From positions 77,155 through 141,154 of the IMG/VR virus record IMGVR_UViG_3300049573_000247: a DNA stretch of 64,000 bases; one strand, 5' to 3'. The stretch is from a virus. Lineage: Duplodnaviria; Caudoviricetes. Made by a program: the position numbers and the translations under genes. Below the pieces are notes generated by a model that made no database searches, was not told where the DNA came from, and worked only from the letters and a program-made list of their open reading frames with translations. Within the stretch, counting starts at the first letter, position 1. Each line of letters begins with the position of its first letter. Shown here piece after piece: positions 9,392 to 33,783 of the stretch.

Positions 9392-9392
9392 G

Positions 9393-9474
9393 TGGACCGG
9401 GCAGGATTTGAACCTGCGATGCATGACGCAGCTGGTTTACAGCCAGCCCCTTTTGGCCGCTCGGGCACCGATCC
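9393..9474 (-). tRNA. tRNA-Tyr (GTA), no encoded CCA
   Basis: Acceptor GGATCGG/CCGGTCC, anticodon arm GCTGG-CTGTAAA-CCAGC, long variable arm, T arm GCAGG-TTCAAAT-CCTGC. Confidence 0.92.
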
Positions 9475-12484: not shown

Positions 12485-12828
12485 ACGGTCTCCAGGTCGT
12501 CGGGGAAGTCGGCGGCGGTGATCGTGAACGAGGGACCGCGCAGCAGCTTGTGCCACCAGCGCCACCGGATTGTTCTGCCCCGCGACGTGAACGGCAGCGG
12601 CCCGTACTGGTCGAGCATCGGTGCCTCCACGGTCCAGTAGGCCATGCTGCGGCAGCCGCAGGAGGAGGCGGTGCGCAGGTGCAGGCGCGCATCGGTGCGG
12701 CCCTCGGGCGTAGCGCACCACGAGACCAGCGCCTGCGCGAGGCGCTGCTTCACTGCGTCGTCCTGCGGCAGCAGTTCGATCAGGCGCGGATCGCGGCGCA
12801 CCGGTGCGGGGAGCGCCGGGTCTCTCAT
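12481..12828 (-). CDS. hypothetical protein
   Basis: ATGA overlap with the HIT stop. Confidence 0.6.
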   Translation of the reverse strand: MRDPALPAPVRRDPRLIELLPQDDAVKQRLAQALVSWCATPEGRTDARLHLRTASSCGCRSMAYWTVEAPMLDQYGPLPFTSRGRTIRWRWWHKLLRGPSFTITAADFPDDLETV

Positions 12829-23141: not shown

Positions 23142-24671
23142 ATGGCTGAGACTTCTACCGTCCGAGGCAGGATGGCGCGGTTCACGCGCCTCGACGAGCT
23201 GGGACGCCCGCTGTACGGCATGGGCAACCAGGCCGTCACCAAAGGCATCATTTCGGTCACCTATACCCCCAACGTCACCGAGGGTGAAGCCACCTCGGTC
23301 ACCAACTTCGCCGGTGAGCAGTGCATCTCGGCGCCAGCGCCGTGCGCGACCATCGACAACTGGACCGTGGCTGTCGAATTCTGCGCAGTCGACCCATGTG
23401 TCGTGTTGATGATCTACCCATCCTGGATTCCGATTTACGACGATTTCGGGTCGATCAAGGGTTTCCAGATCGTCGGCGGTTTGAGCTGCGACGTTGGCTT
23501 CGCCCTGGAGATCTGGGGCCAGATCGGTTCGGCCGGGTCCTCGATCCAGTGCGGCCCAGGCGCCGTCTCGGGCTCCACCTACTGGCTCGCACCCCGCCTG
23601 GTCGGCGCCGCCCCAGGCGAAATCACGATCAGTAACGAGGCCACGTCGTTCACGTTCAACGGCACCACGACCTCGCCGGTCGGCTGGCGTCGCGGTCCCT
23701 ACTTGGTCGACATCGTCGACGGCGTTCCGTCGGTCCTGCGCGACCCGGTCGACAGCGCTGCACAGCTGGTCGAGTTCACCACGCAGGTGCGTCCGCCCGA
23801 GCCCACCAACGGATGCGTGGAGCTGCCACGCCCGGTCCCGGAGGAGGCCAGCGTCATCATCGACCGCGTCCCCACGGACGCGACCGGCATGTGCGCGCGT
23901 CTCATCATCGACAACCACGGATTCGGGCCCGTCACAGTCAACTGGGGCGACGGCACCGACCCCGAGACCAGCGGCGACTGCTCGACCATCACTCACTGCT
24001 ACACGACGCCAGGCACCTACACGGTGTGCGTCGCTGACCAGCAGACCCCGGCGATCTCGACCTGCCGCGAGATCGTCGTGCCGATGCCATCCGATCAGCC
24101 GACCATGACCGTGGCAGTCGATCCGACCGACGACATGTGCGTCATCGCGACCATCGACATGCCACCGCAGTCGGATGGGCGCGTGGAGATCACCTGGGGC
24201 GACGACACCGCTGCTTCGACCGTCGAAGTCACGCCCGGAACACCGGTCGAGGTGTCGCACTGCTACTCGACGCCGGGCGTCTACACCATCCGGGCCGTCC
24301 GCGTGGAGCAGCCGGACTACTACGCCACCGCAACCGTCGTGGTGCCGGTCATTCCGAACCCAATGGTGTCCGCCGCCGTCGACGGCCAGATGGTCACGCT
24401 GACCGTCGACAACAACGGCAACGGTCTCACCACTGTGGAGTGGGGCGACGGCGCCACGACCTCCGGCCCGAACACGGACGGAGGAACCGTCCAGCACACC
24501 TACGCGGCAGACGGCGTCTATTCGATCACGGTCACCTCGGTGTCCAACCCACTCTCGACCACCACGGTGCAGGTCACCGTCGGCGCCGCTCCAGGCCTGC
24601 AGGCCGGAGTCGACGCCGATGGAGGCGATGTGTCGGGCATGACGGTCGACGTCACCTGGAACAACGCTTAG
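23142..24671 (+). CDS. major tail protein with three C-terminal PKD/Ig domains plus a half domain
   Basis: VRG...R.TRLD..G.P, N..GE.C, FC.VDP, FALE.W; three W-G-D...H.Y...G.Y repeats. Confidence 0.85.
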   Translation: MAETSTVRGRMARFTRLDELGRPLYGMGNQAVTKGIISVTYTPNVTEGEATSVTNFAGEQCISAPAPCATIDNWTVAVEFCAVDPCVVLMIYPSWIPIYDDFGSIKGFQIVGGLSCDVGFALEIWGQIGSAGSSIQCGPGAVSGSTYWLAPRLVGAAPGEITISNEATSFTFNGTTTSPVGWRRGPYLVDIVDGVPSVLRDPVDSAAQLVEFTTQVRPPEPTNGCVELPRPVPEEASVIIDRVPTDATGMCARLIIDNHGFGPVTVNWGDGTDPETSGDCSTITHCYTTPGTYTVCVADQQTPAISTCREIVVPMPSDQPTMTVAVDPTDDMCVIATIDMPPQSDGRVEITWGDDTAASTVEVTPGTPVEVSHCYSTPGVYTIRAVRVEQPDYYATATVVVPVIPNPMVSAAVDGQMVTLTVDNNGNGLTTVEWGDGATTSGPNTDGGTVQHTYAADGVYSITVTSVSNPLSTTTVQVTVGAAPGLQAGVDADGGDVSGMTVDVTWNNA

Positions 24672-24680
24672 GAGGCTGCC

Positions 24681-25982
24681 ATGACCGTCCAGATTCAATG
24701 GGACGCTGACGCACCGCTGACGGGGCAGCCCGATGCGGGCACGGCGACGAAGGTCTACACGACCGCTGGCCCTGGGACGGTGACGATCACCGACGAGGCC
24801 ATCGGCGGTGACAGCGTCACTCTCGAATACACGGTGCCGCTCGACCTCACCACGGTCGTAGCGACGCCTGATGCTGTCGACTCGGCTGGGAACCTCGCGG
24901 CGCGCACGATCTCCGTCGCGGGCCAGGGCTTCCCGGCCAACACGGCGGGCACTGTCGCCATCGCCACCGGTGTTCCTGGTGCGTTCGGGACGACCCTGGT
25001 GTCCACCTCAGCCGCCACCAACGCCTCGGGGATCTTCACCGATGTGGACGTGGTGGTCCCCAGCGACTCTGCCGCTGGTGATTACCACCTGGAAGTCAGC
25101 TTCGGTGCCATCGTGGACCTGTCGGAAGCGATCACGCTGACCAACACCGAGCTGACCGCACCGACTGGGCTCGCGTCGCCATCGCAGACACCAACCACCG
25201 TCACGCTTACGTGGACGGCAGTCCCCGAGGCGGAAACGTACGTGGTGCGTCGTTCGCCTGCAGGCGTTGGCACGTGGACGGAGCGGCCTCCTGTTGCGGC
25301 GCTCACGGATACCGTCACCGGCCTGACGGCGTCGACGAACTACGACTTCCAGGTCAAAGCGCAGGCGGTCGGTTCGACCGACTCTCCGTGGTCGACGACG
25401 TTCACGCAGGCCACGCCAGCGCAGCCGGTCCTGGATGCCCCGTTGAACCCGGCGACCGGAACGCCGACGACAACGGAGATCCCGTTCTCGTGGGATGCGG
25501 TCACCGACGCCGAGACGTACACCGTGGAGTACCGGATCAGTCCGGCTGGGGCGTGGACGTCCATCTCCGGCATTGCCACGACCAGTACCACCGTTACCGG
25601 ACTCGACCCGAACACCACATACGACCTGCACGTCAAGGCCGTTGCCAGCGGGTTCACCGATTCTCCGTTCTCGGCGACGGTCACCGAATCGACCGACGCG
25701 CTCGGGACGCTGACGACTCCGGCCACGCCGACGTCGTCGGGGCAGACGGCGACCACGGTCACCGTCAACTGGACGTCGGTCGCCAACGCCGAGCAGTACC
25801 TCGTTCGCTGGTCGCCCGCCGGTGCGGGCACCTGGACCGAACGGCCAGCGGTCGCAACGCTGACAGACACGGTCACCGGTCTGGCGGCATCGACCAGCTA
25901 CGACTTCCAAGTCAAGGCCATGGCCGCCGGATGGGTTGACAGTTCCTTCTCCGCATCGCTGACCCAGTCCACTACCGCTTAA
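24681..25982 (+). CDS. virion accessory protein: N-terminal half-PKD, Ig-like domain, 3 FN3 domains
   Basis: Three L.W..V..A..Y.V...GL...T.YDFQVKA repeats; AGGAGG RBS. Confidence 0.85.
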   Translation: MTVQIQWDADAPLTGQPDAGTATKVYTTAGPGTVTITDEAIGGDSVTLEYTVPLDLTTVVATPDAVDSAGNLAARTISVAGQGFPANTAGTVAIATGVPGAFGTTLVSTSAATNASGIFTDVDVVVPSDSAAGDYHLEVSFGAIVDLSEAITLTNTELTAPTGLASPSQTPTTVTLTWTAVPEAETYVVRRSPAGVGTWTERPPVAALTDTVTGLTASTNYDFQVKAQAVGSTDSPWSTTFTQATPAQPVLDAPLNPATGTPTTTEIPFSWDAVTDAETYTVEYRISPAGAWTSISGIATTSTTVTGLDPNTTYDLHVKAVASGFTDSPFSATVTESTDALGTLTTPATPTSSGQTATTVTVNWTSVANAEQYLVRWSPAGAGTWTERPAVATLTDTVTGLAASTSYDFQVKAMAAGWVDSSFSASLTQSTTA

Positions 25983-25997: not shown

Positions 25998-27953
25998 GTG
26001 CCTATCGTGTTGCAGCCTGTCGACCAAGTCGCGCACAACCAACTGGCGCAGCGGCTCGCCTGCTGGGCCCAAACGCCTGACGGCCTGACCGACATGGCGC
26101 TCATCTACCAGTCGTGTTGCGTCTCGCCGACCGGTCAGACCATCGGCCGATGGGTCGTACCCGAAGATCTCTGCGACGTCTACGGACCGTTCAACTTCAC
26201 CGCCAACGAAGGCGACGTCATCCCGTGCCCGCCCACGGGATCAGCGGAGTACGTCAACTACTACATCTACGACGACGACGTCCACGACATCGACCCCAAC
26301 ACGTGCATCGAGGTCGTCCTCGCCGCGCCGACCAGTCTCGCGTCGCCAACCCAAGGCCCGGACACCGTTGACCTCACCTGGAATGCGGTCGCTGGAGCTG
26401 ACACGTACGTCGTGCGGTGGTCGATAGCCGGTGCAGGCGAATGGACCGAATCTGCGCCCACGGCATCGACGAGCATCGAGATCGGTGGACTCACCGACGA
26501 GACCTCCTACGACTTCCAGGTGCAGGCACTGGCAGTAGGAGCGGTGGATTCTCCATGGTCAGCGACGTTCACGCAAGAGACCACGTCGCTTGGCGAACTC
26601 GTAGCGCCCACCGGTGTCGCAGCACCATCGTCTACCGGCACCACTATCGATGTCACCTGGAACGAGGTCGAGAACGCGACCTCGTACACCGTGGAGTGGT
26701 CACCGACTGGCGCGGGCACGTGGACGCCCGCGACCAGCGCTGACACGACGTACACGATCACGGGACTGGACCTCGGTACCTCATATGACATCCGGGTCAA
26801 GGCGACCGCTCCCGGCTGGACTGATTCGCCCTATTCGACGCCGATCGTCGGCTCGACCGAAGAGCAGCTCGCGACCGTGACTGGGCTCGCGTCGCCTTCG
26901 CAGACCGGTACCACGGTGGTGCTCACCTGGGATGACTTGCCCGAGGCCACCACCTACGTGGTGCGTCATTCGCCTGCAGGTGCGGGCACGTGGACGGAAT
27001 TGGCGCCCGTGGGCACCGATGGCGCGACAGTCACCGGGCTGAGCGCGGGAACCAGCTATGACTTCCAGGTCAAAGCACAGGCCGAGGACTTCGTCGACTC
27101 TGAGTGGACAGCGTCGCTCACGCAGTCGACTGCTGCCGCGCTGGGCACGCCCGTGGTCACCAGTCCAGCTCAGACCGATACCAGCGTGAGCCTGTCGTGG
27201 GCCGCGATTCCGAACGCCACCTCCTACACCGTGCAGTCGGCGCCGACCGCTGGCGGCCAGTGGGAAGCTCTCGTGCCCGACCCGACCGGGACGACCGCAA
27301 CGGTGACGGGCTTGACGGCTGGCACCTCTTACAAGTTCCGCGTCATCGCGCACGCGAGCGGATGGGCCGACTCCGCTTGGTCAGCCGAGTTGACTCAGGC
27401 CACCGAAGCGGCGCTGCTCGCCCCGGCGAACCTGGCGGCGGGTACTCCGACGACCACGACGGTGCCCCTGTCATGGGACGCAGCCGTGAACGCCGACACC
27501 TACACCGTGGCCTGGTCGCCTGCCGGAGCGGGAGTCTGGACCGAGATCCCGATGATCGCGGGCACGAGCACGACCGTTACCGGCTTGACCGTTGGCACGC
27601 TCTACGACTTCCGGATCAAGTCCGTGGCGACCGGATTCGCCGATTCCGGATGGTCGGCCACGATCACCGACAGCACCGCCATCGACGCTCCCACCGGACT
27701 CGCTGCTGGGACGGTCACCTCGACCAGTGTCGCCCTGAGCTGGAACGCCGTCACTAACGCCGATTCCTATCGCGTCCGGTGGTCACCTGCGGGGGCAGGA
27801 ACGTGGACGCAGCTGCCGACGACGACCAACCTCACCGACACGGTCACGGGGTTGACGCCCAGCACTTCATATGACTTCCAGGTGAAGGCGATCAGCAACA
27901 CGCTGACCGACTCGGCCTGGTCCGCCACGCTCACGCAGGCCACTACCGCCTAG
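25998..27953 (+). CDS. Cys-rich N-domain plus 6 FN3 domains
   Basis: Six FN3 repeats; N-terminal 105 aa paralogous to the next gene. Confidence 0.85.
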   Translation: MPIVLQPVDQVAHNQLAQRLACWAQTPDGLTDMALIYQSCCVSPTGQTIGRWVVPEDLCDVYGPFNFTANEGDVIPCPPTGSAEYVNYYIYDDDVHDIDPNTCIEVVLAAPTSLASPTQGPDTVDLTWNAVAGADTYVVRWSIAGAGEWTESAPTASTSIEIGGLTDETSYDFQVQALAVGAVDSPWSATFTQETTSLGELVAPTGVAAPSSTGTTIDVTWNEVENATSYTVEWSPTGAGTWTPATSADTTYTITGLDLGTSYDIRVKATAPGWTDSPYSTPIVGSTEEQLATVTGLASPSQTGTTVVLTWDDLPEATTYVVRHSPAGAGTWTELAPVGTDGATVTGLSAGTSYDFQVKAQAEDFVDSEWTASLTQSTAAALGTPVVTSPAQTDTSVSLSWAAIPNATSYTVQSAPTAGGQWEALVPDPTGTTATVTGLTAGTSYKFRVIAHASGWADSAWSAELTQATEAALLAPANLAAGTPTTTTVPLSWDAAVNADTYTVAWSPAGAGVWTEIPMIAGTSTTVTGLTVGTLYDFRIKSVATGFADSGWSATITDSTAIDAPTGLAAGTVTSTSVALSWNAVTNADSYRVRWSPAGAGTWTQLPTTTNLTDTVTGLTPSTSYDFQVKAISNTLTDSAWSATLTQATTA

Positions 27954-27967
27954 ACAGGAGAAACGCC

Positions 27968-28855
27968 ATGCCTATCGTGCTACAGCCGATCGACCAGACG
28001 GCCAAAGCGGAACTCGCGCAGCAGCTCGCCTGCTGGGCGCGTGCCGCCAACGGCCTGACCGACGTCGCGGTCCAGTACGGCACCTGCTGTGTCTCGCCGA
28101 CCGGCGAAACGCTGGGTCGTTGGACTATTCCCAACGACCTGTGCACCACGTACGGGCCGTTGCCATTCACGGGCAACAACGGCGAGGAAATCGTTTGCCC
28201 GCCTGTCGGTTCCGCCGAGTACGTGTCGTACTACATCTACGACGAAGACGTCGACCCGATCGACGTGGACACCTGCACGCCGTTGGTCGCGCTCGCCGCG
28301 CCGACCGCGCTCGCGGCCGGAACGCCGACCGACACCACCATTCCGCTGACGTGGACCGGGTCGGCCAACGCCAACGCCTACCTGGTGTCGTACTCGTCGG
28401 ACTCGGGCACCACGTGGCTGGAGGTGCAGGCGAGCGGATCGCCATTCACCCTGACCGGGTTGACGCCCGAGACGGACTACACCATCCGCATCCGTGCGCT
28501 CGACACCACGAATTCGTTCGCGAAGTCCCCGTGGACGACCACGGTCACCGCGACCACCGAATCGTCGCTGCCTGAGCTTGCCGTCCCAGCGAACCTCGCG
28601 ACCGGCACCATGACTGCGACGACGGCGCCGCTCACGTGGGACGCGGTCACGAACGCGGTGGACTACCACGTCCAGTACAAGGCGACAGCGTCGCCGACGT
28701 GGCTGGACTGGACGCCTGACCCGGCCACGCCGTCGACCACGGTCACCGGCCTGGTCACCGCCACCTCGTACGACTTCCGCGTGCGGGCCAACGCCGACAA
28801 CATCTCGTTCTCCGACTCCGACTACAGCGCTGTGGTCACTGACACCACCGCGTAA
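27968..28855 (+). CDS. Cys-rich N-domain plus 2 FN3 domains
   Basis: Shares MPIVLQP.DQ...LACWA...CCVSPTG with the previous gene. Confidence 0.85.
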   Translation: MPIVLQPIDQTAKAELAQQLACWARAANGLTDVAVQYGTCCVSPTGETLGRWTIPNDLCTTYGPLPFTGNNGEEIVCPPVGSAEYVSYYIYDEDVDPIDVDTCTPLVALAAPTALAAGTPTDTTIPLTWTGSANANAYLVSYSSDSGTTWLEVQASGSPFTLTGLTPETDYTIRIRALDTTNSFAKSPWTTTVTATTESSLPELAVPANLATGTMTATTAPLTWDAVTNAVDYHVQYKATASPTWLDWTPDPATPSTTVTGLVTATSYDFRVRANADNISFSDSDYSAVVTDTTA

Positions 28856-28905: not shown

Positions 28906-28938
28906 TGATTCCACACTTACATCCCTTTGGAGGGTTCC

Positions 28939-29691
28939 ATGCCCAGCATCAAGTGGTATCCGGACCGGACAGTCCCACGCAAGGGCAAAGCGCGCGTTCT
29001 CGACGTTCCGCAAGCGTATGTGTTGGCGCTCGGCGACGGCACCACGTTCCCCAAAGACCTCGATGACGTCTACCCACACACTTACGCGGCGGCAGGCCCG
29101 TACGCACTGTCGGTCGTTCGCATCGGCGAAACCGAACCGGCAGCGACGCTGCTGCTGAACGTCCTCGACGCCGTCGTACCGAACGTGTCCATCACGTCGC
29201 CGCCGAACTCCCAGACCATCCGGGTGACGTTCCTCGACCCGGAGATGCCAGTAGTCGGCCGGTACACGGTCGACTGGACGCCAACGGAGAGCCAGGACGT
29301 GCTCGCCGAACCCGACAAGTATGTCGAGCGGCTGTTCACGCCGGGCACCTATCCGATCCGCGTGACCGACCACTGGTCGGCACTATCGGTGGTGCAGGAC
29401 GTCGTGGTGGCACCGGTGACTGCCGATCCGGGTTTTAGCCTCGCCGAGGACACCTCCGATCCCGGCCGCATGACGGTGCAGCTGGAAGTCGTGACGGTGG
29501 CTTCGGCGCAGCCCGGAGACACACTGCTCGTCGACTGGGGTGACGGCAACACTGACACCATCGACGCCACGGTCAGCACGATGATTTCGCACGCGTACGC
29601 CTACGACGACGAGTACATGGTCGAGTTGTCGTACACCGACGCCCCCGAGATGAGCACCGTCGAGTTCGTTTGGCTGCCGTTCGACGCCTAG
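28939..29691 (+). CDS. protein of three PKD-like domains
   Basis: LGDG...HTYAAAGPY, VDW...PGTYPIRV, VDWGDG...HAY..D.EY; GGAGG RBS. Confidence 0.8.
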   Translation: MPSIKWYPDRTVPRKGKARVLDVPQAYVLALGDGTTFPKDLDDVYPHTYAAAGPYALSVVRIGETEPAATLLLNVLDAVVPNVSITSPPNSQTIRVTFLDPEMPVVGRYTVDWTPTESQDVLAEPDKYVERLFTPGTYPIRVTDHWSALSVVQDVVVAPVTADPGFSLAEDTSDPGRMTVQLEVVTVASAQPGDTLLVDWGDGNTDTIDATVSTMISHAYAYDDEYMVELSYTDAPEMSTVEFVWLPFDA

Positions 29692-29736: not shown

Positions 29737-29738
29737 CG

Positions 29739-29812
29739 TCGCGGAGGCGGGATTTGAACCCGCGACCTTCAGGTTATGAGCCTGTTGAGCTACCGAACTG
29801 CTCTACTCCGCA
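29739..29812 (-). tRNA. tRNA-Met (CAT), initiator-like, no encoded CCA
   Basis: TGCGGAG/CTCCGCG acceptor, GAGC/GCTC D stem with A11-T24, CAGG-CTCATAA-CCTG, GCGGG-TTCAAAT-CCCGC. Confidence 0.9.
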
Positions 29813-32060: not shown

Positions 32061-32900
32061 ATGCCAGTCATCAACCCACAGGCTCAGGTCCCTGAGAGTG
32101 AGGCGGGCGCCCTGTATCCGTGCGAGCCGTGGCCGATCGACCCGGTGTGCTGTCCTGGGTGGCCTGCAGACCAAGCGGACTGGGATGAAGCGCACTTCGA
32201 GGCGCAGTGGCTCGCTACCGTCGAGCTGTGGCGTGCCGTGGCCGGAGTGATCGGTCTGTGCCGCACCACCGAGCTGCCTTGCCTTGACCGATGCGTGGCC
32301 CGCCCATTGGAATCGGCGTGGATGTACCCCTACCGAGATGTCAACGGCGCCTGGTTCAACTCCAAATGCGGATGCCGCGACACCTGCTCGTGCACGCAGC
32401 TGTGCACCGTCACACTCCAGGGACCGGTCTACCAGATCGAATCAGTTACCGTCGATGGCGTCACGCTGGAGTCGGATCAGTGGAAGCTCCTGACCGGCAA
32501 CCGGCTCGCCCGCTGTGGTGGCTGCTGGCCCAAATGCCAGGATTTCTGCGCCGAGGACGGCCTGGTCGTCACTTACCTGCGGGGCACGCCACCGGGCCTC
32601 GACGCTATCCGAGCCGCCAGCATTCTCGCTTGCCGCAGGCTCCAGGAATGCCCTCCAGGCGGTGGCGACTGCGGAACGTTGCCCTCTGGTGTCACTAGCA
32701 TCAGTCGTGAAGGATTGAATATGCAGCTGGATTCGACTATCGGCGCGGGCGAAGACGGCGTCATTCATTTCACCGGCATCGCGCGGGTTGATCGATGGAT
32801 CGCTTCGATCAACCCGTATGGCGTCACCTCCAACCCGTCGGTGTGGTCGCCTGACGTCGACACGCCGCAGGTCTGGCGTAGTGGATCGGTGAACCCATGA
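32061..32900 (+). CDS. head-to-tail adaptor (Cys-rich)
   Basis: PC.WP.D..CC, L.GPV..I..V.VDG, WP.CQD, LP..VTSISREG, TGI..VD.WI...NP. Confidence 0.75.
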   Translation: MPVINPQAQVPESEAGALYPCEPWPIDPVCCPGWPADQADWDEAHFEAQWLATVELWRAVAGVIGLCRTTELPCLDRCVARPLESAWMYPYRDVNGAWFNSKCGCRDTCSCTQLCTVTLQGPVYQIESVTVDGVTLESDQWKLLTGNRLARCGGCWPKCQDFCAEDGLVVTYLRGTPPGLDAIRAASILACRRLQECPPGGGDCGTLPSGVTSISREGLNMQLDSTIGAGEDGVIHFTGIARVDRWIASINPYGVTSNPSVWSPDVDTPQVWRSGSVNP

Positions 32901-33121
32901 TCCCCTTGATCGTCAGCCTGGTCTATGTCGTGGCCATGTTGTTCACCGCTCGCATGCTCTACCGCAACGCCGTCACCAGCGGATTCGATGTCACTACCTC
33001 CTCGCGCCTGCTCATGGGCGTCGGCTTCGCATTGATTTACGCGCTGGCGTGGCCGCTGCTCCTGCTGGGTTTGGGGGCGGTGCGCTTCATCGTGCATCGG
33101 GCCAAGGGGGACATCGCGTGA
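32897..33121 (+). CDS. small two-TM membrane protein (holin-like size)
   Basis: ATGA and GTGA overlaps on both sides; hydrophobic. Confidence 0.65.
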   Translation: MIPLIVSLVYVVAMLFTARMLYRNAVTSGFDVTTSSRLLMGVGFALIYALAWPLLLLGLGAVRFIVHRAKGDIA

Positions 33122-33783
33122 ACGTCCTGGATTACCTCGAAAACGAGCTGCTGTCGTGCCTGTGCTCGATGCTGCGCACCGAGGGACGTCCAGCCTGCGA
33201 ATGTCACCACTTTGGGGGCGATGTGCCGCCAGTCGGGGACCGCTGCCAGGCCAACACCGCCGGAGAGAACGGGCAGGTGTGGATCAGGCGCGTCTCGCAG
33301 GCGATCGAGTCCGATCCTGAGGAGATCACGTTCGGTGGCTTCGCATGCGACTCGTCGTGGCAGTCGCAGATCGAACTGGGCATCTATCGGTGTATCACGG
33401 CGATCCCCGACGACAACGGGAACGCCCCGTCCCCGGCATCCTACGACGCCGACCGAGACCTGCTCGCCGCCGACCGGGCGACGCTGGCACGTGTGCTGTG
33501 CTGCTGGCCGCTGGCCGGTGAGGCTCCGGCTCCGGTGGCTTTTGATCTGCCCATTGCCGTTATTGCGGCGCAGATTCTGCCGTTGGGGCCCACGGGGGGA
33601 TGCGCCGGGTCGGTGCTGACGCTGGTCGTCAACGCCGCACTCACCGTCGAAGAGCCAGTGGCGCAGCTGGTTGCCGGTGTCGATGCCGATCCAGGCGATC
33701 CAACGGGCCAGACGGCTGTGGTGACATGGCGAAACGAACTTGCGGAGGAGGTTTTCGTTTCCCGTCCAGCCGGAGGTGGCTGA
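33118..33783 (+). CDS. tail terminator-like protein with C-terminal half-PKD peptide
   Basis: LL.CLC, GQVW.R, ELGIYRC, GP.GGCAG motifs. Confidence 0.7.
   Translation: MNVLDYLENELLSCLCSMLRTEGRPACECHHFGGDVPPVGDRCQANTAGENGQVWIRRVSQAIESDPEEITFGGFACDSSWQSQIELGIYRCITAIPDDNGNAPSPASYDADRDLLAADRATLARVLCCWPLAGEAPAPVAFDLPIAVIAAQILPLGPTGGCAGSVLTLVVNAALTVEEPVAQLVAGVDADPGDPTGQTAVVTWRNELAEEVFVSRPAGGG

Follow-up and report, generated by a model that had tools for sequence, protein, structure and literature searches.

The Ig-like arms carried by phage tails are commonly regarded as fusions to structural proteins, made either directly or via frameshifting. In chaperone-usher pili (Fim, Pap, Caf1), an incomplete Ig-like fold is completed by a strand from another polypeptide, and in SpyTag/SpyCatcher and its relatives a peptide and the rest of a small beta-sandwich together restore the fold, with the peptide working at termini or in loops. 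Two phage systems come closest to the locus described here. In Tuc2009 (PDB 5E7T), a 25-residue C-terminal hairpin of BppU completes the sheet of domain 2 of BppA, which results in a titin-like composite domain (PMC4742702). In SPP1, an Ig-like/FN3 extension is added in cis to the tail tube protein by programmed frameshifting, the two forms being gp17.1 and gp17.1* (PMC6316719). Here, we analyzed a stretch of 64,000 nucleotides from a virus of the Caudoviricetes (IMG/VR record IMGVR_UViG_3300049573_000247, positions 77,155 to 141,154; this whole stretch is referred to as the window), in which the fourth PKD domain of the major tail protein is split between two adjacent genes, with two strands left at the end of the tail protein and the remainder at the start of a protein that probably docks onto them.

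The gene for the major tail (tube) protein (23142-24671, plus strand; 509 amino acids) encodes a tube core, three whole PKD repeats, a linker and a final stretch of 24 residues, followed by a TAG stop. This final stretch, hereafter tag 1 (24597-24668, plus strand), corresponds to strands A and B of a fourth PKD domain and aligns with strands A-B of repeat 3 and of the single-chain domains of relatives. Strands C to G of the same domain make up the first 54 residues (24681-24842, plus strand; hereafter the catcher) of the product of the next gene, a putative decoration protein of 433 amino acids (24681-25982, plus strand), in which this half of a PKD domain is followed by one Ig-like domain (about residues 55-150) and three FN3 domains. 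An initial annotation, made from the letters of the window, had proposed just this arrangement, i.e., three repeats and a partial fourth in one gene, and the remaining strands ahead of an Ig-like and three FN3 domains in the next. Both parts of the proposal were borne out: the two halves lie at the coordinates given above, Pfam recognizes fn3 three times in the decoration protein, and the model predicted for its first 150 residues contains a second beta-sandwich after the PKD half.

As judged by alignment, tag and catcher are two halves of one PKD domain cut in the B-C loop, because the joined halves align with domains that relatives carry in a single chain. A single-chain version is found in a 185-amino-acid protein of a distant relative (L016, L019); when the window was read through the stop and compared with that of L016, 39% identity was obtained over 84 residues (E-value of 5e-13), and the only gap, of 2 residues, fell at the junction. 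The alignment of repeat 3 of the tail protein itself also runs through the stop, covering the tag and the beginning of the decoration protein (E-value of 0.004; 70 columns). The tail protein of P0101, a relative retrieved in the search of representatives, has four whole PKD repeats in cis and ends at a domain boundary, and the joined tag and catcher resemble its fourth repeat in pattern. An AlphaFold2 model of the read-through construct showed seven strands within residues 10-88, with a predicted local distance difference test (pLDDT) value of 65-92, followed by a second sandwich (mean pLDDT of 80); the MAFFT alignment used for it (A4) was shallow and partly misaligned, with the first ten residues of the catcher placed on the second strand of the tag. 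Another MAFFT alignment, in which repeat 3 had been included (A3), was dropped, since the catcher halves were aligned onto repeat 3. A Foldseek search with the read-through model returned generic tandem Ig/FN3-like matches only.

The selective constraint on the two halves was estimated from the ratio of nonsynonymous to synonymous polymorphism (pN/pS) among five close relatives. The ratio was 0.36 in the tag and 0.21 in the catcher half; for comparison, the intact repeat 3 had 0.42 and the tube core 0.16. Purifying selection acts on both halves, and neither is decaying.

With regard to the tail protein, its residues 1-367 correspond to the major tail protein family phrog_792 (PHROGs; E-value of 8e-55). 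Homologues of the tube core were found by tblastn in 793 phage records, the best matches listed being nearly all annotated as major tail protein, and those so annotated in Arthrobacter and Microbacterium phages match the core at 31-36% identity. The three complete repeats (23847-24581, plus strand) occupy residues of about 236-314, 315-402 and 403-480 and are recognized by PF00801 (48.7 bits; cut-off of 23.5) and PF18911 (41.7 bits; cut-off of 27), and repeat 3 matches repeats 1 and 2 internally with E-values of 4e-10 and 7e-7. A search of PDB sequences with the profile of the tail protein gave nothing meaningful. Further downstream, an open reading frame of 254 amino acids (28927-29691) contains two additional PKD-like repeats (E-values of 6e-5 and 0.005 against repeat 3) and had no PHROG match.

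The junction between the two genes (24669-24680, plus strand) comprises the TAG stop, which overlaps an AGGAGG ribosome-binding site (24670-24675), and a 9-nucleotide spacer, so that the ATG of the decoration gene stands in frame with the tail gene, 9 nucleotides past the TAG. Stop and spacer are the same, letter for letter, in contigs of three other public soil or rhizosphere runs belonging to two other studies; the TAG stop is therefore not a sequencing error. The junction was also compared across 13 related loci, with tail proteins of 95% down to 65% identity and further. None of the 13 had lost the stop behind the tag, and the initial annotation's own reservation, that the TAG might be an error or a private mutation, was thus lifted by the identical junction in the three other runs and by the presence of the stop in every related locus. 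The comparison with relatives, suggested in the same place, also showed that the frame is not conserved. The distance from stop to start was 9 nucleotides in this phage, and 10, 11, 13, 14, 15 or 16 nucleotides or a 4-nucleotide GTGA overlap also occur, with a second stop directly behind the first in the relative with the 15-nucleotide spacer. Frame offsets of 0, 1 and 2 are all represented, even between phages with 95% identical tail proteins, and an in-frame arrangement was found only in this strain and in one relative with the double stop. Each spacer harbors a Shine-Dalgarno-like GGAGG, GGGGG or AAGGAG, and each downstream gene starts with ATG or GTG; the AGGAGG which the annotation had taken as the ribosome-binding site ahead of 24681 is present in the sequence. 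A search among longer proteins for a fused form of the tail and decoration proteins yielded none, which is weak evidence.

On the catcher side, all 40 homologues with this N-terminal region start at the same residue, one further match being without the region, and 12 of the 19 matches in the search of representatives with the catcher begin at residue 1. Catcher proteins of 188 to 668 residues occur, and their C-terminal parts differ. A hidden Markov model (HMM) of the catcher, run across the phage's own genome, found exactly one catcher and no other such half-domain. Besides the PKD half, no anchoring domain is present in the decoration protein. The two FN3 proteins encoded after it (25998-27953 and 27968-28855) have a Cys-rich N-terminal domain of their own (25998-26330 and 27968-28300) of approximately 110 residues, which is 63% identical between both, was assigned to no family and may possibly be another virion anchor. 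A third and weaker copy of this domain was detected far upstream, at about 12583-12780 on the minus strand (36% identity over 67 residues; E-value of 2e-8).

One residue of the catcher, Lys24 of the decoration protein (24750-24752), is invariant in split catchers and stands at the place of the His of the PKD H-x-Y motif; at the equivalent position, cis domains have Gln in L016 and L019, His in P0101 and Lys in the adaptor of L021, described below. We considered Lys24 as the mark of a covalent or special lock and dropped this idea, given that the same Lys is present in the cis domain of L021.

A second copy of the tag (33667-33735, plus strand; tag 2) is inserted before the conserved C-terminal tail of a tail terminator-like protein. 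The gene for this protein (33118-33783, plus strand) encodes 221 amino acids from a GTG at 33118, a start chosen from homologues, while the longest open reading frame begins at 33049. Tag 2 is identical to tag 1 at 15 of 23 positions and was the only other match in a six-frame search of the 141-kb genome (E-value of 5e-6), and because of this the likeness is not a matter of chance; the copy is as the initial annotation had located it. Likewise, an HMM built from all tags finds exactly two in the genome, tag 1 with 43 bits and tag 2 with 52 bits. In the AlphaFold2 model of the terminator-like protein (pLDDT of 82), tag 2 is predicted as a beta-hairpin (residues 183-207). The label of the carrier also held, as the best Foldseek matches of this model were lambda gpU (3fzb, 8iyd), the terminators T5 p142 and that of Mu, and the P74-26 neck, at a probability of 1.00 and E-values of 5e-5 to 5e-4. 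From the predicted model, this protein folds like a tail terminator of the lambda gpU type, which agrees with the position of its gene between those for the head-tail adaptor (phrog_783) and the tape measure protein. Between the adaptor and the terminator-like gene lies a hydrophobic open reading frame of 74 amino acids (32897-33121), which overlaps the GTG of the latter by 4 nucleotides and had no family match; a membrane-like protein is unusual in a connector gene block.

Tags were also found at other places in related phages. Among 44 terminator homologues, about 22 have a tag just before the conserved C-terminal tail and about 20 have an acidic linker there instead. In two others, those of L014/L015 and P0080, the tag is placed about 40 residues further towards the N-terminus, within an internal loop. 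The tail protein ends in two tandem tags in L005, L007 and L020, and a small adaptor protein does so in L016, L019 and L021; the first tag of each tandem pair has no partner in cis. Being gained, lost, doubled and moved with its sequence kept, the tag behaves as a module with a function of its own. In each of the 13 related loci, the gene immediately before the catcher gene encodes a protein with one or two tags at its end. In L022, the tail protein holds a whole fourth repeat, the next gene encodes a head-tail adaptor, and there is no catcher after it. The genome of the present phage carries two tags and one catcher.

Taken together, these observations are probably best explained by docking through complementation in trans, for which we infer the physical binding, its stoichiometry and the role of the resulting arm. 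According to this model, the fourth PKD domain of the tail-tube protein has been cut in its B-C loop, and its two pieces are translated separately. The tail-tube protein keeps strands A and B as the tag, a C-terminal hairpin of 24 residues, a second copy of which is on the terminator. Strands C to G, the catcher, open the product of the next gene, ahead of its Ig-like domain and its three FN3 domains. During or after tail assembly, the tag hairpin would complete the incomplete sandwich of the catcher in trans, by a two-strand beta complementation. This would attach the decoration protein, without a covalent bond, to each subunit of the tube and, in roughly half of the lineages, also to the ring of the terminator, and each arm of three PKD repeats would be lengthened by five Ig-type domains. 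The arm is presumed to mediate weak adhesion to carbohydrates of the host or the environment, by reference to the Ig-like domains of phages. In comparison with a fusion, splitting might permit decoration after polymerization of the tube, an adjustable occupancy, the use of one accessory gene for several sites and an easy exchange of cargo. The terms tag and catcher are not to be taken as covalent, since nothing points to a covalent bond. The initial annotation had read the peptide as a portable docking tag, and comparison among relatives supports this reading: docking fits every comparative test that was run, namely the conservation of the split without conservation of the frame, the two halves that make one domain, the mobility of the tag (in tandem, relocated, present or absent) and the co-occurrence of tag and catcher.

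A complex prediction, which had been proposed as a check of docking, was run with tag 1 and the catcher. Residues 1-150 of the decoration protein were folded together with the C-terminal 32 residues of the tail protein, and an alignment was supplied for each. The score was 0.39, compared to 0.02 for the best control, which amounts to weak support; the runs agreed in at least 97% of contacts, and the pLDDT of the partner was at least 60. The mark applied in such predictions was reached by 58 of 80 solved complexes and by 2 of 110 mismatched pairs, and at scores of 0.60 or below by 7 of the 80 solved complexes as well as both passing mismatches, counts which hold only roughly here, as own alignments were used. 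We regard the outcome as a small push in favor of docking, and no more.

Several points weigh against docking as described. The complex prediction, with its weak support, gives no confident interface. The phage is uncultured, and its decoration protein is a predicted component of the virion. By pN/pS, the constraint on the tag is somewhat weaker than that on the tube core. The terminator label comes from fold similarity, with modest template modeling scores of 0.47-0.57 normalized by target, and at the level of sequence the protein matched only phrog_810, a family of unknown function, in PHROGs, and nothing in Pfam or in a profile search of the PDB. Finally, the two genes are in frame in this phage, and rare natural read-through of the TAG could add traces of a fusion, which would be incidental.

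Neutral gene fission would offer another account of the locus, whereby a mutation cut the domain, the halves no longer meet and the tag is a remnant; the Ig/FN3 protein would then bind the virion otherwise or be no virion protein at all. The inferred nature of the binding between tag and catcher, the weak complex prediction and the many terminator homologues without a tag are in favor of this account. We nevertheless consider it improbable, as both halves are kept to 65% tail-protein identity and beyond, at pN/pS values (0.21-0.36) no worse than that of the intact repeat, and the tag has been duplicated and transplanted. Moreover, a remnant would leave the decoration protein without any anchoring domain, when the neighboring FN3 proteins have their Cys-rich N-terminal domain.

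It is similarly improbable that the tag serves a different partner, such as a PKD repeat of the neighboring subunit, by which the tail would be braced, or a structure of the host, with the catcher being completed by something else. The genes for tag and catcher are always adjacent and co-occur, both being lost in L022; their halves sum exactly to one domain, cut in one loop; and the genome holds no other half-domain. These features stand against a different partner even considering that strand swapping is common between adjacent Ig-like domains and that contacts between subunits are possible for a tag located at the tip of an arm of three repeats.

Lastly, programmed recoding, i.e., amber read-through, a frameshift or a short ribosomal hop which would put the entire Ig/FN3 arm in cis on part of the tail subunits in the manner of SPP1 gp17.1*, is very improbable, for the frame takes all three offsets among close relatives, the one in-frame relative has two consecutive stops, no slippery site is common to the loci, the last codon (GCT, GCC or GCG) leaves no shared pair of take-off and landing codons, a separate Shine-Dalgarno sequence and start are present for every downstream gene, suppressor tRNAs are absent from the genome, and there is no downstream half to which tandem tags or terminator tags could be joined. 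What would speak for recoding is the in-frame arrangement 9 nucleotides apart in this window, a gene boundary inside a domain, which is the expected outcome of a recoding site, the frameshift-made Ig-like/FN3 extensions known on tail tube proteins (SPP1 gp17.1*; PMC6316719) and, in relatives with a spacer, the GCC codon before the start together with Ala as the last sense codon. A ribosomal hop from the last Ala codon to this GCC was considered and discarded, since L005 and L007 end in a GCG codon and since L016 and L019 have overlapping genes. Judging from the variable frame, the kept stops and the separate starts and ribosome-binding sites, recoding is not what maintains the split arrangement, and read-through is rejected as a conserved mechanism. 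The initial annotation had offered amber read-through as its own alternative, aided by a near-cognate tRNA-Tyr; the tRNA-Tyr gene does exist (GTA, 9392-9474), and none of the 8 tRNAs in the whole genome is a suppressor. With the varying frames and the stop kept in 13 loci, this alternative is not supported.

Returning to docking, a second split was observed in three of the related loci (L016:8371-10004, L019:3-1528 and L021:2367-3989). Here, the tail protein (351-358 amino acids) ends in the middle of a PKD repeat, directly after a WGD motif. The remaining part of this repeat opens the next protein (185-187 amino acids), where it is followed by a complete domain made of tag plus catcher and by two free tags. 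The two genes overlap by TGATG in L016 and L019, and in L021 they are in frame, separated by 3 nucleotides. From its composition, this small protein looks like an adaptor which is itself docked by a split domain. We give about an even chance to the broader proposition that in these soil phages a natural, genetically portable two-strand tag, placed at a C-terminus, in an internal loop or in tandem, recruits one catcher to several virion sites, and that some lineages build their arms stepwise via a docked adaptor with two tags. In addition, a metagenomic protein, P0104 (391 amino acids), has several PKD repeats and an N-terminus which starts mid-repeat at the H-x-Y region; it could be either another split partner or a truncated gene call.

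The source contig is a single sequence of 141,154 bp with 65.6% G+C, and the window represents its last 64 kb. According to PHROGs, the structural genes of the window resemble those of actinobacterial siphophages, and they include, apart from those mentioned above, a major head protein (583 amino acids; phrog_777), the head-tail adaptor (phrog_783) and a tape measure protein of 1260 amino acids. Near-identical DNA is present in soil and rhizosphere metagenomes, and no RNA dataset was listed among the public runs that contain it. In the collection of cultured phages, no match was found by megablast with the tail and decoration genes, by tblastn with the first 150 residues from the catcher onwards or by tblastn with the terminator-like protein; the lineage is known from metagenomes only, with no close cultured phage. 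Two tRNA genes lie within the structural gene region on the minus strand, opposite to the structural genes: a tRNA-Met gene (29738-29812) and the tRNA-Tyr gene mentioned above.

An arm which is clipped on would account for "truncated" domains at the ends of genes, which annotators are inclined to set aside as errors or pseudogenes, and it would let one accessory protein serve two sites. If the broader proposition on a portable tag and stepwise arms is true, split Ig-type domains would represent a general assembly grammar for phage appendages, and the pair described here would be a ready-made non-covalent tag and catcher for display technology; if the binding is tight, this pair could be put to use in phage display and protein assembly as a small docking module of natural origin. 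The family gives an unusually complete series, from the intact domain to the split domain, doubled tags and relocated tags, and because of this completeness docking is directly testable with short peptides and a 150-residue fragment.

Compared with the known systems, the analogy to chaperone-usher pili is mechanistic only. Pilins lack the C-terminal strand G, which a chaperone fills first, whereas the catcher lacks two strands, A and B, from the N-terminal side of its domain; there is no sign of a chaperone, and the result would be the decoration of a virion and not polymerization. SpyTag/SpyCatcher is man-made, of the CnaB type and linked by an isopeptide bond, in contrast to the natural, PKD-like pair of this phage. 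The likeness to SPP1 would lie in the outcome, a non-essential arm of Ig type which some or all tube subunits carry and whose coding sequence comes immediately behind the tube gene. In SPP1, however, the arm arises by a +1 shift at CCC-UAA with no separate start, while the decoration gene has its own start and a variable frame relation to the tail gene; neither a conserved frame nor a conserved recoding site was found, and the downstream part has its own translation start.

The closest solved case is that of Tuc2009 BppU/BppA, with which the locus shares a two-strand C-terminal extension of about 25 residues on a scaffold protein of the virion, an accessory partner with binding modules and, as predicted here, an Ig-like composite domain. 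The corresponding features here are the 24-residue tag after the last whole repeat, terminator homologues that exist with and without the tag, and a partner whose sandwich is without exactly the strands of the tag and starts at strand C (40/40 full homologues). The complex of Tuc2009 has been solved, whereas the present pair is known from sequence and models, and the likeness is one of description. In our literature search, we found no description of a split PKD joint on a tail tube or terminator, and no similar joint is described in the paper on Brochothrix phage NF5 (PMC12917162). In Tuc2009, the site is the baseplate and the incomplete domain lies at the C-terminus of the accessory protein; here, the sites would be the tube and the terminator, and the N-terminus of the accessory protein is involved. 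Furthermore, the halves here are those of a split PKD repeat of which relatives have intact cis versions, and the tag is mobile and can be doubled. The differences from Tuc2009 thus concern the site, the family of the domain, which end of the accessory protein takes part and an evolutionary series in which the passage from intact to split domain is visible.

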